From NCBI RefSeq assembly GCF_030028105.1, contig NC_092390.1, positions 21,624,427-21,688,426 of the forward strand: a DNA stretch of 64,000 bases, given 5' to 3'. This DNA comes from Mobula birostris. Lineage: Eukaryota. A program made the position numbers and the translations under genes. This document shows, piece after piece, positions 2,265 to 55,909 of this stretch (positions are counted from its first letter, which is position 1; the number at the start of each line of letters is the position of its first letter). The notes under the pieces were generated by a model, which worked only from the letters and a program-made list of their open reading frames with translations, was not told the DNA's origin and did no database searches.

Positions 2265-3420
2265 TCTATATTTTCCTTTCTTCTGCCTCACTCCCTTCTT
2301 AAAGAGTGGAGTGACATTTGCATTTTCCAATCCTCCAGAACCATCCCAGAATCCAGTAATTCATGAAAGATCATAACTAGTGCTCATCAATCTCTTTAGC
2401 TACCCTTTTTAGAACCCTGAGTTGTAGTCCATTTGGTCCAAGTGATTTATCTACCTTCTGACCTTTCATCTTCCCAAGCACTTTCTCCTTAGAAATAGCA
2501 ATATTACTGACTTACATCACATGACACTCTAAAATTTCTTGCATTCTGCAAGTGTCTTACATACTCATCAAGTTTCACCACTGTTTCTTTGTCCCACATT
2601 ACTAACTCTCGATCGTCATTTTCCAGTGGTCCACTCTCGCCTTTCTTGTACTCTTTGAATATTTGAAAAAAGATTTAGTGTCCTCTTTTATATTATTGGC
2701 TAGCTTCCCTTCATATCCCTTCATTTCTGTCCTTATGGCTTTTTAAATAACCTTCTGTTGGTTTTTAACAGCTTTTCAATCCTCTAAGTTCTCACTAATT
2801 TTTACTATGTTGTGTGCCCTCTCCTTTGCTTTTATACTGTCTTTGGCTTCCCTTGTCATCCACGGTTGCCTTATCCTTCCTTTAGAATACTTCTTCATCT
2901 TTGGGATGTATCAATCCTATGGTTTCTGAATTGCCCCCAGTTATCCCCATTGTTATTCTGCCATCATCCCTGCTGGTGTCCCCTTCCAATCAACTTTGGC
3001 CAGTTCCAATTTCATGCCTCTGTAATTCCCTTTACTCCACTGTAATAATGATACATCTGACTTTATCTTCTCCCACTCAGACTGCCAGGTGACTCCTGCT
3101 CTGGCTGCTCTGGCTTTGTGTCTGAGGACTCACTTTCATTCTAAATGGTCTTTGCATACTTTTATTGTTTACACAATTTATTTTCTTTCTCTGCACATTG
3201 GGTATTTGTCACTTTTTTTATGGGTTCTTTTAGGTTTCTTGTTTTGTAGCTGCATGAAAGAAGCCAAATCTCAAGGTTATATAATGTATATATACTTTGA
3301 TAATAAAATGTATTTTGAACTTTTGAACTATGAATTCTGTTATATATCACTGCTTCCTATGTGTTCCTTACACTCTCTAATCATTTTTGGTTTGTTACAC
3401 AACACCCAATCCAGAATCGA

Positions 3421-4010
3421 TTGTAATATGACCCGGATTGCACCATCCATTGTTAACCAGAACAGTAAGCCCCCAACTCCTTTATGCTTACCGCTCTCAC
3501 TGCACTTCCGGTCAGCCCGAACGGTCTGGAAGCCGTCCATGGAGAAGTTTTGATCGGGTATGTCCTCGTGCAGCCCCGTTCCAGTAAAACACATAACATT
3601 GCACTCCCGAAATGTTCCCTGACGCCTGGTTAGCGCCTTGAACTCGTCCATTTTATTACCCACCGAACTCCTCTTCTCCATAGGTCTCTGTTGTCTCGAC
3701 CCGGTCCTCTTTCCTCGCCTTTGTGATCCCCCTCTGCATCCTCTGTATGTTTTCCTCCAGATTTCAGCCGGGGTGTCTGCCGCTCTGCTCGCTAAACCGG
3801 CCGACATAAGCTCAATCAGCTGGTCCCTGGAATAAACAATGCATCCATGCTTCTGTCCCGCTAATGAGACGTGTCGGGATGTAACTATTTCCAGCACTAA
3901 AAACCCAAATAAAACTCTCTCTACCAGCATGTTAGAGAGGGTGCAGCTTCAATGTGTTACCGTGAAAAAAATACAAAAATAATGTAAGTTAAAAAAGTAA
4001 GAAGAAAAAA
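3421..4010 (-). mobile_element. Rex1/Babar LINE 5' fragment (start of the APE endonuclease)
   Basis: ORF 3340-3930: YSRDQL..., GNKMDEF...RECNVMCFT.T.LHEDIPD...DGFQTVRADR...SGK.KG resembles the Rex1 endonuclease N-terminus. Confidence 0.75.
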
Positions 4011-4014
4011 GTAA

Positions 4015-7000
4015 GAATCCTACAGGCCCAGAGCCATCAAATGCTTTTCATATGACAAGCTGTTCAATCCTGGAATCATTTTTGTGAACCTTCTTTGAAC
4101 CCTCTCCAGTTTTAGTACATCCTTTCAAAGATAAGGGGCCCAAAACTGTTAATAGTATTCCAAGCGAGCCTCATCAGTGCTTTATAGTCTCAATTTTACA
4201 TCCTTGATTCATATTCTAGTCTTCTTAAAATGAATGCTAACATTGCATTTGCCTTCCTAAGCACAGACTGAACCTACAAGTTAACCTTCAGGGAATCCTG
4301 CACAAGGACTCCCAAGTCCCTTTGTGCCTCAGTTTTTTGGTATTTTCTCACCATTTAGAAAACAATCAACCCTTTTATTTCTTCTGCCAAAATGCATGAC
4401 CATACAGTTCCCAACACTGTATTCCATCTGCCATTTCTTTGCCCAGTCTCCTAATCTGTCTAAGTCCTTCTATAGCCTCTCTACTTCCTCAAAACTACCT
4501 GACCCTCCACCTACTTTCATATCATCTGCAAACTTTGTAACAAAGCCATCAATTATATCATTGACAAATAACGTAAAAAGAATTGGTCACAACACACACC
4601 CCTGTGGAACACCACCAGTCACCGGCAGACAACCAGAAAAGGCTCCCTTTCCTCCCATTCTTGTCCTCTTGCCAATCAGCCAATGCTTTATTGATGCTAG
4701 AATCTTCCCTGTAATACCATGGGCTCATAACTTGTTAAGCTGCCTAATGTGTGGCACTTTGTCAAACGCTTTCTGAAAATCCAACGTCAACTGTTTCTCC
4801 ATTGTCTATCCTGTTGGTTATTCCTTCAAAGAATTCCAACAAATCTGTCCGCTAAGATTTTCTCTTGACAAAACCATGCTGATTACAGCTTAATTTGTCA
4901 TGTGCCCCCAAGTACCCTGAGACCTCATCCTTGATAATTGACTCCAACATCTTCCCAGCAACTGAGGTCAGTCTAACAGACCTATTGTTTCCTTTCCTCT
5001 GCCTCTCTTCCATCGTCAAGTGTGGAGTGACATTTGCAATTTTTCAGTCTTCAGGAACCATTACAGAACCTAACGATTCTCAAAAGATTGCCTTCACAAT
5101 CTCTTCAGCCACCTCTTCCAGAACTCTGAGGTGCACACCATCTGGTTCAGGTGCCTTATCTACCTTCAGATCTTTCAGTTTCCCAAGAACCTTGTCTCTA
5201 GTTATGGTGGCTTTGACTTCTCTTGTTAGCCACGGTTGTGTCATCTTTCCTTTAGAATGCTTCTTCCTCTTTGAGATGTATATATCCTGTGCCTTCCGAA
5301 TTGCTTCCAGAAATTCCAGCCATTGCTGTTCTGTCATCATCCTTGCCAGTGTTCTTTTCCAATTAATTCTGGCCGACTCCTCTCTCATGCCTCTGTAATT
5401 CCCTTTATTCCACTGTAATATGATACATCTGACTTTAGCTTCTCCTTCTCAAATTTCAGGGTGAATTCGATCATATTATGATCTCTGGCCCCTGAGGGTT
5501 CTTTTACCTTAAGCTCTCATATTAATTCTGGTTCATTGCACAACACCCAATCCAGAATAGCTGATCCTCTACTGGGCTCAACCATGAGGTGCTCTAAAAG
5601 CCATCTCATTAGCACTTTAGAAATTCCCCTTCCTGGAATCCAGCACCATATGAACATAAGAACAGAAGAAGTAGGAGCAGGAGTAGACCATCTGGACCAA
5701 CGAGCCTGCTCCCCATTCAATATGATCATGGCTGATCTGGCTATGGACTCATCCCCATCCATAACCTTTAATTTTCCCAATCTACCTGTATATTGAAATC
5801 CCCCATGACTATTGTATTATTGTTCTTTTGACATGCATTTTCTATCTCCCATTATAAGTTATAGGTCACATTCTTACTACTGTTTGTGGGTCTCTATACA
5901 ACTCCCATCAGAGTCTTTTTACCCTTGCAGTTCCCTAGCTCTATCTACAATGATTCAACACCTTCTGACACTATGTCACCTCTTTCTAATGATTTGAATT
6001 CATTTTTTACCAACAGAGGAAAGCTGCCCCTCTGTCTTCCTGCCTGTCCTTTCGATACAACGCGTACCCTTCGGACATTAAGCTCCCAGCTATTATCTTC
6101 TTTCAGCTATGATTCAGCGATGACTACAACATCATACCTGCCAATCTGCAACTGTGCTGCAAGTTCATCTACTTTATTCTATATACTGCGCACATTCAAA
6201 TATAACACCTTCAGTCCTGTATTTACCCTTCTTGTTTTTGTTCACCTTTTACTTTGCAACGCATCCTGTTGGCTGCAATTTTGCCCTATCAACAGCCTCT
6301 CCTCACTAGTCATCATCTCTGTGTGTAAACCAGCTACCTCATCTTCAGCACTATCATCTGCTTCTCCTACGATACTTATTGTATTGAAATATACGCAGCT
6401 CAGGACACTAGTCGCACCATGCTCAACCTTTTGATTCCTAACTTTGCCTAAGTTTTCCTAAGTTTCCACGAACTGTTCTGGCATTGGTTCCCATCCCCCC
6501 TGTAACTCTGGTTTAAACCCCACTGTGCAGGAGTAGCAAACCTTCCCACTAGGATCTTAGTACCCCTGCAGTTCAGGTGCAAACTGTCCCTTCTGTGCAG
6601 GTCCCACATTCCCTGGAAGAGATCCCAAAGATCCAAAAATCTTATGCCCTCCCTCCTACACCAACTCCTTAGGCACATATTAAACTCTATAAGGTTCCTA
6701 GTTCTGGCCTCACTAGCACGTGGCATGGGTAGCAATCCTAAGATCACAACCCTGGACGTCCTTGCCCTTTAACTTGGCACCTAACTCCCTATGCAGAACC
6801 TCATCACTTGTCCTACCCATCTCATTGGTATCTACATGGACCATGACTTCTCACTGTTCACCCTCCCACTTAAGAATGCTGAGGACTCGATACGAGATAT
6901 CCCGGACCCTGGCACCCGGGAGGCTGCATACCATCTGGGAATCCCATTCTCACCCACCGAACCTCCTGTCTGTTTCCCTAACTAATGAATTCCCTATCAC

Positions 7001-40680: not shown

Positions 40681-41418
40681 CATCAGGGTGACAGCCCTTC
40701 TTCAGTGCCCAGGAAGCAGAAGGGCCCAGAGGAGATTCATGAGAATGATCCCAGGAATGAAAGGGTGTTTGATGGCTCTGGGCCCGTACTCACTGGAGTT
40801 TAGAAGAATGAGAACCATGGAAACCGACCGAAATGGGCCAAGAAGAGCTTAGATTATTTTTGGTAGCTGCAAATTAATGGTCATAGGATTCTACGTCATG
40901 TTGCTTAGTACTATGAAAGTATGAATGAAAACCTCTCCTAGGCTAATCCCATTGGTCAATGCCCAGGATTCTTGAAATAGTTATGTAGTACATCATTGAT
41001 TTTAACTTGGGACTCCTCCCGCAGGATTCCCTAAAGGTTAACTTGCAGGCTGAGTTGGCGGTAAGGAAGACAAATGCAATGTTAGCATTCATTTCAAGAA
41101 GAAAAGAATATTAAAGACTCAAATATATAATGCTGAGGCTTTATATGGCACAGGTCAGACCACAATTAGAATACTGTGAGCAGTTTTGGGCCCTTTATCT
41201 AAGGAAGTATATGCAAGCATTGAAGAGGGCCCAGAGAAAGTTTATGAGAATGATCCCAGGAATGAAAGGGTTAATGTATGCCAAGTGTTTGACGGCTCTG
41301 GGCCTGTACTCACTGGGGCTTAGAAGGACGAGAATCATAGAAACCTACTGAATATTGAAAGGGCGAGTTAGAGAGGACGTGAAGAGGATGAGTCCAATAC
41401 CAGAGGACATATCCTCAG

Positions 41419-41657
41419 TGTTGTAGATTTGATATTTCAATGATATTTAAGTAAACTTGTGTTTGATTACACATTCTTGTTCATTTAAATAATTAATTAT
41501 GGGTTATAAGTAAAAATACATTAATTGCATCTGTCGTCACGCTACCACATGATATGTGCACACCTCGCTTAAAGTAAACTCAAAGTTAGACTCACATTTC
41601 AGACTCCTATGTCTTCCTTTGAATTGGTTTAATGTTTTGAAGTTACCAAACATAACA
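41419..41657 (+). repeat. 5' LTR
   Basis: TGTTGTAG...CATAACA; direct repeat of 44062-44297. Confidence 0.93.
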
Positions 41658-43061
41658 TTGGCAACAAGGTATTTTTAACACAACTCCGAGATAGCTACTG
41701 ACCTATTCAGAAGGATGGACACGACTGAGTTTAAAAGAAGGCTGTGAATGGAAGGATTCAGGGTTCATAAAGAGTGTGTATCAGGTGAAAATAATCATTA
41801 AAAAAGGCAGAAATGGTTGGATACATTGGAAAGATTGACCAGTTTGATTATACAATGGGTAATTGACTCATGTATACTGAGCTATTGGAACAGTATTCTG
41901 AAGCAAGTGAAGTAGTCAATGAGAAGCAAGTGCCAATGTTGCTGAGTGCATTGGGTTTAAAGGCATACAGTTTGCTTCGATGTTTGACTGCTCCAGCAAA
42001 ACCATCGGAAATGAGCTTTGCTGCTATTGTAAAAGTAATGCAGGAACACTTAGAACATAAAGCCACTGTTGACTGCAGAACATTTCAGGTTTCACAAACA
42101 GAATCAAAATGAAGGGGAACCCATTTCAGCTTATGTGGCTGAATTGAAAAGATTGTCTGAGCATTGTCAGTTCTGTAATGGACTTAATGATGCACTGAGA
42201 GATCGTTAAGTTTGCAGAATCTTAAAAGAAGGCTTTCAAGAATGGCTCCTAACTGAAACACAACTTACATTTAGAAGAGCAGTTGAAATAGCTGTATCAA
42301 TGGAAACAGCAGACAGAGATACAATTGAGTTTCGGTCAGGAATGAAAGTGAACATGAACAAAATTATAGTGTCTAAACAAAAACCAGACTGGTTAAACAA
42401 ATCATCTTACCGTTGTTACAAGGTCTCACGTACGCCTGACCAAAGCAGTTTTAAAGGCAAAACATATAGAAAATGCAACAAAATAGGACACAAATAGAGC
42501 ATGCAGGGCAGACAGAAATAAATGGACTGCACAGGGAAGAGAAAAAGCTAAAAAGTAAAGTTAAAGTTTCAAAAAGATCATTAATCTGCACGCTGTTGGT
42601 GAAAAATTTGATAACGATGAGAGTGACACAGGACTGTGTAGCCATGAGAACTGTTGTGTGAAATTTAATAAATGATAAGCATTACGGCTTACACCAGAAG
42701 TGAATGGTAAATTAATTAAAGTGGAATTGGACACTGGCTCAGCTGTTTCAGTCATTCTACAAAATGAGTTTGAGAGGCATTTCAAAGATATTAAACTGAA
42801 GCCTGCAGATATCCAACTAAGAACTTATACTGGAGAAAAGATGACTTATGTGATAATGACATTTGTAACTGTGAAATACAACAACAAACAAGCCACACTG
42901 AGCTTTAATGTGGTAAAAATAGGAGGACCAGCATTGTGGGGCGTGAATGACTGAAACAACTACAACTTGATGGGAGAGCCATCCATCATTTGTATGCATC
43001 ATCCCCTATAATATAGTCAAATGCAGGTGAATCAATAAAGGTGCTTGATGATGCCACAACT

Positions 43062-43745
43062 GTCCCTATACCAAATACTATGAACCATTGCCCAACAGAG
43101 CACAAACAGAAGTTGGTTCCAACCTCTGTTCTTCTGTTTGAAAACCATATTGGACCATGGAGGGACCATGTTGCTCAAAGGAATCATGAAAGTGTCGAAA
43201 GTAGGGGTCCGACTACAATAGTTTTTGTATACAGCATATCTGAGATATGTTCAGGCAGTTACTTGCAAATTGTGGCTTGGGTTAGCTGGGAGAGAGTTCA
43301 AGGAGCTTCAGGAAAGTTGGAAGCATTTGGCTTCTGTGAAGATAAAGAACAAGAATCTACTCTGTGCATTAAAGTTATTTCATAAACTTCAAATGGGGAA
43401 CAAAAAGTTGCTTGTAAAAGTAGATGCAAAGACCAAAGCCCAGCTGGATAAATGGAAGGTCAAAAAAAAAGGAGTCAATGGAGATATGAAAACAGTGGAT
43501 TTGCCAAATGATATTGTGGATGAGGAAACCAAGAGGAGAGATCAGATCGTAACGGGAACAATAGAAATATTAATATGAGAATACTCCAGTGAACTGAATG
43601 CACTTTCTGAAGTTCAAGATGCACAAACTAGAAGAAAAAGGAGGGAAGAGGTGGACTGAAATAATGTCAATGTGAAAGAGGAGGGACGCAAGTAAAAAAA
43701 GAAAGAGATCAAAGTAAATCTAAAGAAAGAAAAGGGAAAGAAAGG
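43062..43745 (+). pseudogene. RBM25: Processed (intronless) RBM25 fragment, RRM region, with frameshifts and stops
   Basis: Across three frames: LVPT..GPTTIVFV.SISE / DMFRQLLANCGL / SWERVQGASGKLEAFGFCE.KE.ESTL / ALKLFHKLQMGNKKLLVKVDAKTKAQLDKWK.KKK..DEETKRRDQ...IEILI*EYSSELNA. This is colinear with vertebrate RBM25. Confidence 0.9.
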
Positions 43746-44061
43746 TGTCGAGAGCTGTCAGAACCTCTTCCTGCAGCTTCAGAGTCAACACCTACAACCA
43801 CCACGGAGGAGGTCTCACACCTGAGTTTGTTACCACATCCACAGATCTCACCTGTGAAGCAGAATGATCACCAGGAAAGACGTTAACCCACCAGAGCAAG
43901 AAGCCTTCCACAGAGATTAAATATTTATGCCTGAATAGGACAATTTAAAATTTACTATGCCATAGATGTCTGTACATTGTAGTTGTATTATATAATATAC
44001 TGCATATAGATTTGAGAAGCATTCTCTACTAAGTTGGATTTTGTAGCCAAGCAGGGAGAGG

Positions 44062-44297
44062 TGTTGTATATTTGATACTTCAGTAATATTGTATATATAT
44101 TGTTTGATTAGGCATTCTTGTACTTTTAAATAATTAATTACGGGTTATATGTAAAAGTACTTTAATTGCATATGTCATCACGCTACAACATGATATGTTT
44201 AAGCCTCGCCTAAGTAAACTCAAAGTTAGACTCACATTTCGAACTCCTGTGCCTTCCTTTGAATTAGTTTAATATTTTGCAGTTATAAAACATAACA
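44062..44297 (+). repeat. 3' LTR
   Basis: TGTTGTAT...CATAACA, preceded by a polypurine tract. Confidence 0.93.
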
Positions 44298-45519
44298 GTG
44301 AGAATTGAAGGATGTCCCTTTAGAACAGAGATGAGAAATTCCTTTAGCCAATGGGTAGTGAATTTGTGGAGTCCATTGCTACAGATGGCTGTAGATGGAA
44401 AGTCACTGCGCATATTTAAAGCAGAGGTTGATAGTTTCTTAGTTAGTAATGGTGTAAAGGTTACAGGGGGAAGGCAGGGGAAAGGGATCGTGAGGGAAAA
44501 TGGTCAAAGGGCAAAGCAGAATCGATGGGCCAAATAGGCTAATTCATCTTATGGCCTTATGGTCATGAAGTCATGGAAAAACCTATATAAATGCAATTCT
44601 TGCAGCAACTCAATGCATTGAATATAATCAAGATAATGCTAACTACGTCAGAATAGCAAAGCCGGAATCAGTCAACCACATATCTTCTGGTAATTACCTA
44701 TAAAGCACGATGAAGGTTCTTTGAATTCAAACATTAACTCTGCTTCTTCTCGCTGGTGCTGCCTGACCTGCTGAGTGAGACCAGAATTTTGTGTTTTACC
44801 TCAGCAAATTTAAAATTTACTTTCAGGATTCCTAATTTAGTCTATCTCAGGGGCTCCCTGTCACAATGGTCACCTGATGCTTCAAACACTCCATTGTACT
44901 CGTTCCATCCCCATCGGTGTTCTACCTCAATTTGCTCGTTTCACGTACCACGATTCAGCAGCAGGTTGGTAGATCTGATGTGCTTGTTCCATTACCTATT
45001 TCTGTTTTTTATCAAGCATAATACTGGAGTCTAAATTAGTTTTATGACATATGCCAAAGATATTAAACCTGACTCTGATTGTTGTTCTGCTGTCCTTAAT
45101 CGACAACAGACTTCAAACAAAATACTGTCTGAGTACATCCTCTGTTGTTAACTTTGATTTATCTTGAGCTAGATAATCATCATGCTTTGATTCTCGGCTG
45201 TATTGACAAAAATAGCACCTGCTTAACAAATTATAGCATTAAAACAATCTAAGGGCGCATGAGAACACTCTGAAACGTTTCACTATTTATTTCATTTACA
45301 AATTTCTCTCTTGAGAGTGAGTATTTTTATATATTTTCCCCAAGCTATATTCCTGTGTGCAGCATTTATATATTTCATGGGGATTTTGTGTAGTAGTTGC
45401 CTTTATTTGCAGTGTAGTTTGCTTCACCTGATGTACCTGAACCAAATTTATCAGTGCCGTGAGCTGGATTATAAGCAATAAGTTTAGAACTGGAAAAGGA
45501 TCTAGTGCTTTCCTCATAT

Positions 45520-45780
45520 ATGACAAATAAACTCTTCTTGGGCTTCCAGCTCAAGAAGAATTTATTATCAATTTTAATTGACGTTTTGACAAATTATCAA
45601 TTTTAACTGATGTTTTGATGACAAACTCTGCCATCTCCATCAAAGATGATGCCTGGGCATGTCTAGTCCAGTGGTGTATATATACCCCTGTCATCTGTCC
45701 CTCCTGATACTACAGGACTAGACATGCCTAGGCATCATCTCTAATGAAGATGGCAGAGTTTGTCTTCGAAAGGTTGGACA
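45520..45780. mobile_element. Second Penelope-like inverted-repeat element with decayed hammerhead cores
   Basis: ~50-bp inverted arms at ~45620-45670 and ~45716-45766; CTAATGAAGATGGCAGAGTTTGTCTTCGAAA. Confidence 0.65.
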
Positions 45781-49692: not shown

Positions 49693-50248
49693 CAGACCTC
49701 CCACCCTGCAAAAACTCATTTCAGGGAGGTAGCACCATCAATTTGCGGGAGACTCCCAGAACTTCCGGGAGAGGTGGGATGTCTGCAATAGAGTAGCTCC
49801 TTAGCAGCTAGCCAGCTAGTTTAAATAACGTTAGCTATACTAATGAACGAATAACACCTGTTAAACTCACCTCAACATGTCTTTTACAGCCTTAACCCAC
49901 CATGGGCAATAGAAAAGTCACTGTTGCAAACAGTGCAGCGAGCAACACTGCCATTATTTTTGACCCCTATTAGGCAGGGGTACACTTTAGGGTAGTCTGG
50001 GGTGACGTACGTTTTATATTTTCTTTTTTTGGGACACTCTGCCATGGCGCTCGCTCTCTCACTCTCTCTTGTGGACGCTTGCGCGCTCTCGCTCTCACAC
50101 GTGGTCACTCTTGCGCTCCCTCTTGCTTTCTCTCTCTCGCTCTCAAAAAAATTGATTTCCGTGATATTGTATATAATTTGCGGGCATCAGGGAGCCACTA
50201 TTAATATGTGGGAGACTCCCGGAACTTCCAGGAGAGGTGGGATTTCTG
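49693..50248 (-). mobile_element. Non-autonomous hAT-type DNA transposon with a transposase first-exon remnant
   Basis: TIRs CAGACCTCCCACC / GGTGGGATTTCTG; flanks AGCCAG/AGACAG (6-bp TSD, 1 mismatch); MAECPKKRKY...ARCTVCNSDFSIAHGG zinc-finger start. Confidence 0.8.
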
Positions 50249-51592
50249 AGACAGAGTATGCTCCATCTACTAGAACTCTCTGCCTTCAGTGGGCAAGCCA
50301 ATTCTGAATCCGTACAGCTATATTTTCCAGGATCACATGCCTCCTGATTTTCTGACTGAGCCTATTATGGGGAAATTGTCAAGCGTCTTACTAAAATCCA
50401 ATACATCCATTGCTCTGCCTTCATCAATATGTTTTGTTGCTTCCTCAAGTAATTCAATCAGGTTCATGAGGCATGACCTGCCCCTCACAAAATGATGCTG
50501 ACCATCCCAAACTGGACTACGCTTTTCCAAATACTAAGAAGCCTCTCCAATAGTTTACCCAGCATTGATGCAAGATTCATTGGTCTTTAATTGCATAAGA
50601 AACTATAAGCAGAATTAGGCTATTTGGCCCATCAGGTCTGTTGTCATTTAATCATGGCTGATTTATTTTTTCTCTCAGGCCCAGTCTCTTGCCTTCACTC
50701 TGTAAAATTTGATGTCCTTACTAATCAAGAACCTATCAACCTCAACCTTAATTATACCCAATAACTTCCATTGGTAATGTAGACTACCATGACTCTGAAT
50801 CTCTGGTTCAATGGTGAGACTGATGGTGGGGGAGCTGCATTACCTTAGTTCTTGAGCAGACAAGGCCCCCATGCCTTGGATTCACCTGTTGCAGTCACCG
50901 GCAAAGGAGGCACCAGAGCTGGCTGGATAGTGTTGGGTTCCATACTGGGCTAGAGGCTTGCTCCTCCGGTGTTCGGTCCCAGCAAGAGAGCTTTCATCTC
51001 CACCTGCAATTAGATGAAATAAGGAACTGCTGTGGCTTGTTCTTAAAGAAACGTTGCTCCAAGACAATATCAATGCACCATCATCCACGAGTCACGAGTC
51101 ACGACACTCAGGGAGTTGGGCGGTATTTTTATTATCAGTGAATCTCCCATGATTGGAAACATCCTGTCCATGTTCTAGTTCTTTCGATATTTGGTGATGT
51201 CAATGAGATAACCCCTCATTCATCTAAACTCCAGTAAGTACCAGCCCAGAAAAATCAAACATTCGCGTAGGTTAACCCTTTCATTCCCAGGATTATTCTT
51301 GTAAATTTCTTCTGGCTCCTCTCCAACGTCAATACTCAATGGAGTCTGACCAATGCTGTACAAAATTTCAGCATTATGTCCTTGTTTTTATAGTTTGGTC
51401 CTCTCAAAATTAATTTTCTTACTCCCAACTCAGCCTGTAAGTCAACCTTCAGGGAATCCTGCACTGGAACTCCAAAGTCCCTTTGCACCTCTGATTTCTG
51501 AATTTTCCCCTTTGAGAAAATACTCTACACCTTTATTCCTTCTACCACAGTGCACAACCATACACTTCCCTGCACAATATTCCATCTGCCAC

Positions 51593-55389: not shown

Positions 55390-55463
55390 TGCGGTAAAGT
55401 CAAATTGGGTGTTGCACAAATGAATGATATCATTTCTGATCTGTGGTGTATCATGATCATAAA

Positions 55464-55664
55464 AATATGTAAACCACTATGTATATACAAAGCCTCTGTA
55501 CACACTGGAATCAATATGTAAACCACTATGTATATACAAAGCCTCTGTACACACTGGAATCAATATGTAAACCACTATGTATATACAAAGCCTCTGTACA
55601 CACTGGAATCAATATGTAAACCACTATGTATATACAAAGCCTCTGTACACACTGGAATCAATAT
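55464..55664. repeat. Perfect 49-bp tandem repeat, 4.1 copies
   Basis: AATATGTAAACCACTATGTATATACAAAGCCTCTGTACACACTGGAATC x4. Confidence 0.97.
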
Positions 55665-55909
55665 CACGCTACAATTCAATAACATTATGCATTACAAAAG
55701 TACAATTTTCACGTGGATAAGGCCTAGGTGAGTGAGCAACAGGAAGCATGCAAAAAAAGATCACTGGTTACTGTAAATTGTCCATGCTGTACCGCAATCA
55801 ATCAATAGATAAATAAACAAACAAACTGGTAAACTGGAAAGGGTATGGTCCAGAGGAGAGTTCTTGGGTGATGTCTCATTACAGCTTGGATCCCTCATTC
55901 ATCAAGAAG

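Follow-up and report, generated by a model that had tools for sequence, protein, structure and literature searches.

Introduction

The gag-onc elements of acutely transforming retroviruses are replication-defective and helper-dependent, and they carry host coding sequence in frame with their structural genes; in these fusions, the captured domain is intact and under selection. A second kind of capture is represented by the LTR-mediated retrocopies described in the available part of Tan 2016 (PMC5131818), in which a partial mRNA replaces part of the ORFs of an LTR element, microsimilarity is present at both switch points (median 6 bp), and the resulting locus is recopied as a non-autonomous element. 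Maize Bs1, an LTR element with transduced pieces of several host genes, is titled a new chimeric gene in the portions available of PMC7264820 and PMC5131818.

Here, we describe a retroelement found in a 64,000-nucleotide stretch of DNA (hereafter the window, to which all positions refer unless otherwise stated). Positions 41419-44297 represent a decayed non-autonomous Ty3/gypsy LTR element that contains gag and protease and lacks reverse transcriptase (RT), RNaseH, and integrase, its pol core having been swapped for intron-less, spliced RBM25 mRNA (host exons b-j). The element has the features reported in the available part of Tan 2016: an intron-less insert, ORF replacement, microsimilarity at both joins, and recopying. 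However, the retrocopies described there are young and some have several insertion sites, whereas the RBM25 element forms one old family (at least 150 matches scored, and first-look candidates in the thousands) marked by nested deletions and probable gag-PR exchange. Furthermore, the in-frame statement in that part of the paper refers to the parental protein, whereas the RBM25 element is a Gag-PR fusion. In contrast to Bs1, as far as it is described in the sources cited, the element has a single donor gene, and none of its sampled copies is intact or shows selection. It resembles the gag-onc fusions in that host sequence is in frame with a structural ORF (68/70 scorable copies) and in that it behaves like a transducing element dependent on helpers, but it has no env, no evidence of selection on the cargo, and no intact copy among 81.

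The capture mechanism itself is already known from Tan 2016 (PMC5131818). A literature search covering journals outside subscription found no report of an RBM25-carrying retrotransposon, and RBM25 does not occur in the available text of the VGP Phase I preprint (PMC13320880) or in the three supplements searched. We favour, with a probability of about three in four, the reading that a Ty3/gypsy element captured RBM25 mRNA by two RT template switches, the first of which was in frame by chance, and that RBM25 has been a neutral passenger.

Structure of the element

All of the element's features described below are on the plus strand. The 5' LTR (41419-41657; TG...CA) and the 3' LTR (44062-44297), both of ~240 nt, show 84.6% identity to each other across 240 nt, and ~690 nt of foreign sequence is present between them. 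A putative primer-binding site (41658-41669), assigned by its position, adjoins the 5' LTR, and a purine run adjoining the 3' LTR (44051-44061) is the probable polypurine tract. Together with the order of gag then protease, the TG...CA LTRs and this tract are the gypsy hallmarks present in the window copy. The gag region (41813-42612), which contains stops and frameshifts, was identified by tblastn with P0123, a full gypsy polyprotein from the carp Cirrhinus mrigala (matches at 41948-42088 and 42060-42326, 51-74% identity), and its start is similar to P0125. The stop-terminated aspartic protease region (42613-42954), with its DTG at 42730 in frame class 1, shows 50% identity to P0123 residues 130-239 and matches Pfam PF13975 with an E-value of 2e-4, under the family's cut-off. 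It is followed by a PR-RT linker that extends to VLDD (42955-43051); the linker is collinear with that of RT-bearing copies, and three-frame translation shows a frameshift and stops in the window copy. Downstream of the insert, a pol (integrase-end) tail (43744-43934) matches the tails of RT-bearing copies.

P0123 aligns to the window element in gag and protease only, indicating that RT, RNaseH, and integrase are missing from this copy: the residues from ~280 to the tail are absent here and retained by RT-bearing relatives. Since the RT-RNaseH-integrase region is present both in these relatives and in P0123, the element is a non-autonomous derivative. The RT-bearing relatives in genome G000 show 76-84% DNA identity to the chimeric element, and P0123 is collinear with it in gag, protease, and tail, with 48% identity up to the join. 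In both P0123 and the relatives, RT follows VLDDAT, whereas RBM25 takes this place in the chimeric element.

In a check for a target-site duplication, three of the five bases were alike in the flanks of the element (CTCAG and GTGAG). The sequences on both sides (41000-41418 and 44298-44545) apparently belong to a CR1-like LINE fragment into which the element was inserted; contigs of other copies jump from ~41270-41360 to 44301. Elsewhere in the window, we found a tandem array of a 49-nt unit with identical central copies (55415-55708), a MITE-like 63-nt inverted repeat (87% complementary, 33-nt spacer; 45613-45771), and two overlapping ORFs of ~100 aa on opposite strands (49884-50307). The minus-strand ORF has a C-x2-C motif and may represent the remnant of a transposase zinc finger. 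ARAGORN detected no tRNA gene in the window.

The RBM25 insert and its donor gene

The host RBM25 gene (G000:C1:154442830-154493435) was located with the C-terminus of P0007; a PWI family search yielded other PWI genes and not RBM25. A protein search with the insert frame gave 169 matches, and the 120 listed are RBM25 or relatives; a PDB sequence search with the frame of the C-half of the RRM gave no match. An exon-by-exon map showed that the insert of the window copy consists of the last 10 nt of exon b, cassette exon c, exons d, e, and f, most of exon g, and remnants of exons i and j. The part up to exon g that follows the 5' microhomology (43059-43625, with the RRM inside) is 85% identical to the host, and the deleted, K/E/R-rich remnant of exons i and j (43625-43743) ends in the 3' microhomology. 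With three frameshifts and a single stop in its RBM25 segment, in addition to the broken gag, this copy fits its description as decayed in the earlier note. The stop had been ascribed there to a CGA>TGA change; however, the only host-frame stop (host codon 178, position 43576) is not at a host CGA codon.

Exons c-g are contiguous in the insert with the host exon junctions present, and exon h is also kept in three longer copies (L022, L088, and L089). A blast comparison of seven intron flanks with 55 copies detected no intron sequence. Exons joined without introns identify the insert as spliced mRNA, and capture at the DNA level is ruled out. Alternative splicing was also ruled out as the origin of the jump from exon g to exon i, because a GT donor is absent there.

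The 48-nt cassette exon c (VSMLYTMNRCPTEGKQ) is located at G000:C1:154450900-154450947 (L039) in the host and at 43062-43109 in the window. It is also found in Heptranchias P0001/P0121 and in P0122, and is absent from the gar, frog, and bird RBM25 sequences read, a distribution by which the genome is likely that of a cartilaginous fish. An ATG within this exon could serve as the start of a shorter RBM25 isoform. P0001, a Heptranchias RBM25-like protein, was considered as a possible element copy and ruled out, its odd N-terminus being host cassette exon c.

The 5' join

The earlier note had reported an ORF that runs from pol-type residues into RBM25. This ORF was confirmed: a stop-free frame extends over 43017-43385 (first GTG at 43041) and passes from one to the other without a frame change. 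In the window copy, the pol part ends with VLDD, the Ala-Thr codons at 43052-43058 are common to both parents, and RBM25 starts at 43059 with the end of exon b, followed from 43062 by exon c. The stretch VPIPNTMNHCPTEHKQ belongs to host exon c and not to pol. The reading here is VLDDATAVF in RT-bearing copies (e.g. L056 and L073), PATT-VSM in the host, and VLDDATTVSM in chimeric copies; the shared seven nucleotides, TGCCACA, encode identical Ala-Thr codons in both parents. The join itself is thus in frame as stated, but the ORF departs from the RBM25 frame in places, being shifted off and on it by indels at host positions 182 (-10), 199 (-3), 235 (-2), and 317 (-2).

We scored this join in 84 distinct chimeric loci, 14 of which were unscorable. 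Among the remaining 70, the spacing of 9 nt is identical in 66 and the join is in frame in 68. This constancy of spacing indicates a family-wide frame rather than copy-level noise, and the in-frame 5' join is a single inherited event. Several copies are stop-free from protease into RBM25 (e.g. 208 codons in L013). In the window copy, the active-site codon of the protease (42730) belongs to frame class 1, whereas the join belongs to class 0, and stops intervene; the ORF that spans the join is therefore separated from Gag-PR in this copy. Because the join is in frame nearly throughout the family, active masters could have made a Gag-PR-RBM25 protein, and the ancestral chimeric polyprotein envisaged in the earlier note is supported to this extent.

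In five RT-bearing copies, 36-53% of the 7-nt stretches that pol and RBM25 cDNA share by chance, with the junction excluded, were in frame. At such a rate, one in-frame capture requires no selection, and the caveat attached to the original observation, that in-frame junctions can arise by chance, likely applies here.

The 3' join

The second switch is in exon j, at ~8 shared nucleotides (AGAAGAAA in the better-kept copies) that are exact in three of the six RT-bearing tails compared. At the original 3' join, the host frame is out of phase with the pol frame. Between an anchor in exon g and the tail, a full-length insert would span 494 nt; nested deletions have reduced this distance, in most cases to 152 or 44 nt. 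The 3' phase could be scored in 49 of 55 copies: the shifted phase of the original join is retained in 28, 11 are in frame with the pol tail, and 10 are in the third frame. Since the RRM meets the pol tail in its frame in only 11 of the 49, and the two were out of frame when first joined, the single Gag-PR-RBM25-tail frame postulated earlier is unsupported. The reported passage of the K/E/R-rich segment into the pol tail does exist, in that the frame at 43665-43886 reads through this segment into LSEP, but it is not the frame of the RRM (class 0 versus class 1 for the C-half of the RRM in the window copy); this reading arises from a secondary deletion.

Many RT-bearing relatives in G000 also have internal deletions (e.g. 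L055, L057, L062, L074, and L082). Several of these rejoin the tail at AGAAGAAAGG, the same stretch as in the RBM25 capture, which may be a template-switch hotspot.

In the 3' forms that occur most often (full length, 152 nt, and 44 nt), the RRM frame enters one and the same tail frame (28/49). This shared phase, as well as the contrast between a gag that appears selected and RBM25 residues that do not, would fit with the frame being kept at the RNA level, where a translated insert would shorten the 3' UTR and protect the Gag-PR mRNA and the RBM25 residues themselves would be irrelevant. However, only two independent frame-keeping steps are involved, which would be expected by chance in about one case in nine; the purine-rich sequence is poor in stops regardless, and the stop positions in the tail differ between copies. 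We therefore regard protection of the mRNA as unlikely.

Copy number, age, and integrity of the family

Searches of the 4.0-Gb genome gave 3045 candidates at the DNA level, 40 of which were scored, and 5715 at the protein level, 150 of which were scored. Although candidates cannot be equated with copies, these figures suggest a family of roughly a thousand members or more. The 84 chimeric loci, from which four duplicate loci and one near-duplicate (L100) had been left out, are distributed on many contigs, and the element was thus copied on as a non-autonomous one. The copies show 85-91% identity to the host exons, indicating that the family is old. Family-like sequence was found in the runs of all four organisms B, D, G, and I, with contigs across the 5' join in those of organisms G and I. 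Pieces from organism B are 97-98% identical to the 3' part of the window copy and, at this level of identity, likely mark the same insertion.

In the RBM25 part (576 nt), no indel is common to more than two copies and no stop to more than seven of the 55, so that the frame of the masters was likely open. Only L083 (1/55) is free of both stops and frameshifts in the RBM25 part, and it lacks most of the protease. None of 81 copies, a sample that includes the best-scoring loci and represents a small part of the family, has an open frame over protease and RRM.

Selection on the RBM25 part

At the copy level, dN/dS of the RBM25 part is 1.00 (77 copies; 31 of 192 codons masked), and 142 stops were found where 142.4 were expected. 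The value is 1.10 in 22 copies chosen on gag/PR only and 1.05 for the RRM core in unbiased copies. The dN/dS comparison proposed for this segment thus gave a neutral result across copies. A dN/dS of ~1 shows that there was no domestication after insertion and says little about the masters, because it reflects mostly post-insertion decay, which is neutral for any element.

As master-lineage variants, we took non-CpG variants common to at least 20% of copies (intermediate frequency). Silent and replacement variants of this class number 16 and 10 in gag (p = 2e-4 versus 27% silent), 6 and 13 in PR, and 0 and 4 in RBM25; shared silent sites thus amount to 16 in 501 nt of gag versus none in 576 nt of RBM25 (p = 4e-6). 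Had the RRM been under selection along the genealogy of gag, numerous silent variants would be expected in RBM25, whereas none was found; with four sites, brief selection is compatible with the data. Family-wide differences from the host, which are unpolarised, comprise 16 silent and no replacement changes. Host-lineage drift at the copies' rate, which includes some shared variants, predicts 13.8 silent changes (P = 0.31). The 16 differences fit such drift; if some of them arose in the element, they would indicate selection.

Among gag variants that are rare in RT-bearing copies, 7 of 11 are silent (p = 0.012); this excess suggests that the ORF was translated. One possibility is that chimeric masters relied on their own Gag and hence translated the fusion; the other is that the donor subfamily is unsampled. 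A contig (X22 record 22, depth 12) spans the 5' join in a run that is presumed to be RNA, with which DNA may be mixed, and is given no weight either way. No fused PR-RBM25 protein was present among the 120 listed of 169 matches, in a single-match search, or among the best 150 of 2276 matches, of which the one reaching residue 178 is a plain pol fragment.

These results bear on the proposal of the earlier note that the RRM was useful, that is, functional and selected in the masters, for example by binding element RNA for packaging or processing. Such a role would account for the in-frame 5' join without widely shared frameshifts or stops, the 16:0 ratio of family-wide silent to replacement changes, the position of the four shared replacements outside the RRM core, the retention of the RRM while downstream exons were deleted, and the large amplification (3045-5715 first-look candidates). 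However, the fixed silent class is accounted for by host drift, intermediate-frequency silent variants are absent from RBM25, the RRM core evolves at a dN/dS near 1 in unbiased copies, no copy of the 81 is open over PR and RRM, and the protein matches inspected contain no fusion. Neither purifying selection nor an intact copy, as would mark a functional Gag-host fusion, was found, the master-lineage test having low power (four sites). As RBM25 shows no selection in the tests run, a useful RRM is unsupported and, in our view, quite improbable. We are equally sceptical of its broader form, in which an RRM of spliceosomal origin served a gypsy lineage as a C-terminal domain of Gag-protease, so that the lineage outcompeted its helpers for packaging or RT and spread to ~1000 or more copies across several cartilaginous-fish species.

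Probable exchange with helper elements

Shared variants are far fewer in RBM25 (4/576 nt) than in gag-PR (45/900 nt; p = 2e-6), indicating that RBM25 coalesces much later than the gag-PR to which it is fused. When gag-PR sequences from 45 chimeric and 32 RT-bearing copies were placed in a tree, 14 label changes were counted (shuffled mean 24.7), and a single chimeric clade was rejected (AU p = 0.01) in this weakly resolved tree (4/74 branches starred). A variant in exon c is weakly linked to variants in gag-PR (r2 no higher than 0.21). When loci were ranked by similarity in gag, the nearest 29 comprised 10 with RBM25, 12 with RT, and 7 with neither; by protease, the corresponding numbers were 19, 9, and 1. 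In addition, a chimeric copy with an extended C-terminal piece of integrase after RBM25 (L095:2031-2290) is likely a recombinant with a helper. These data are most simply explained by a single capture, after which gag-PR was exchanged with helper elements. Repeated refreshment or re-capture of the RBM25 segment from co-packaged host mRNA at the same microhomology would also yield few shared variants, two of which lie no more than 14 codons from the join, and several distinct 3' forms, but the same 16 silent differences from today's host occur in all 3' structural groups, which confines any re-captures to a short window of time, and a single capture with gag-PR exchange accounts for the contrast equally, making re-capture very improbable.

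We thus return to the capture of RBM25 mRNA as a neutral passenger. Two template switches onto spliced RBM25 mRNA, with loss of RT, RNaseH, and integrase, would have generated the chimera, the first switch falling in frame, likely by chance, at microhomology. The chimeric RNA would then have been copied by the RT and integrase of autonomous relatives, with which the chimeric elements would have recombined in gag-PR, and the 3' part shrank through nested deletions. The masters would have expressed Gag-PR-RBM25 as a single polyprotein, with an RBM25 tail that was presumably tolerated and not used.

Conclusions

The RBM25 family is an unusually large and old vertebrate case of LTR-mediated gene capture. 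Selection on the RRM, if it had occurred, would make the family a case in which a retrotransposon had domesticated an RNA-binding domain of its host, opposite to the direction usually seen; the present data do not show this. One template switch likely left at least 1000 RBM25 pseudo-fragments, which are able to confuse gene annotation. The family also records how a chimera evolves, through nested deletions and the exchange of gag-PR with helper elements.
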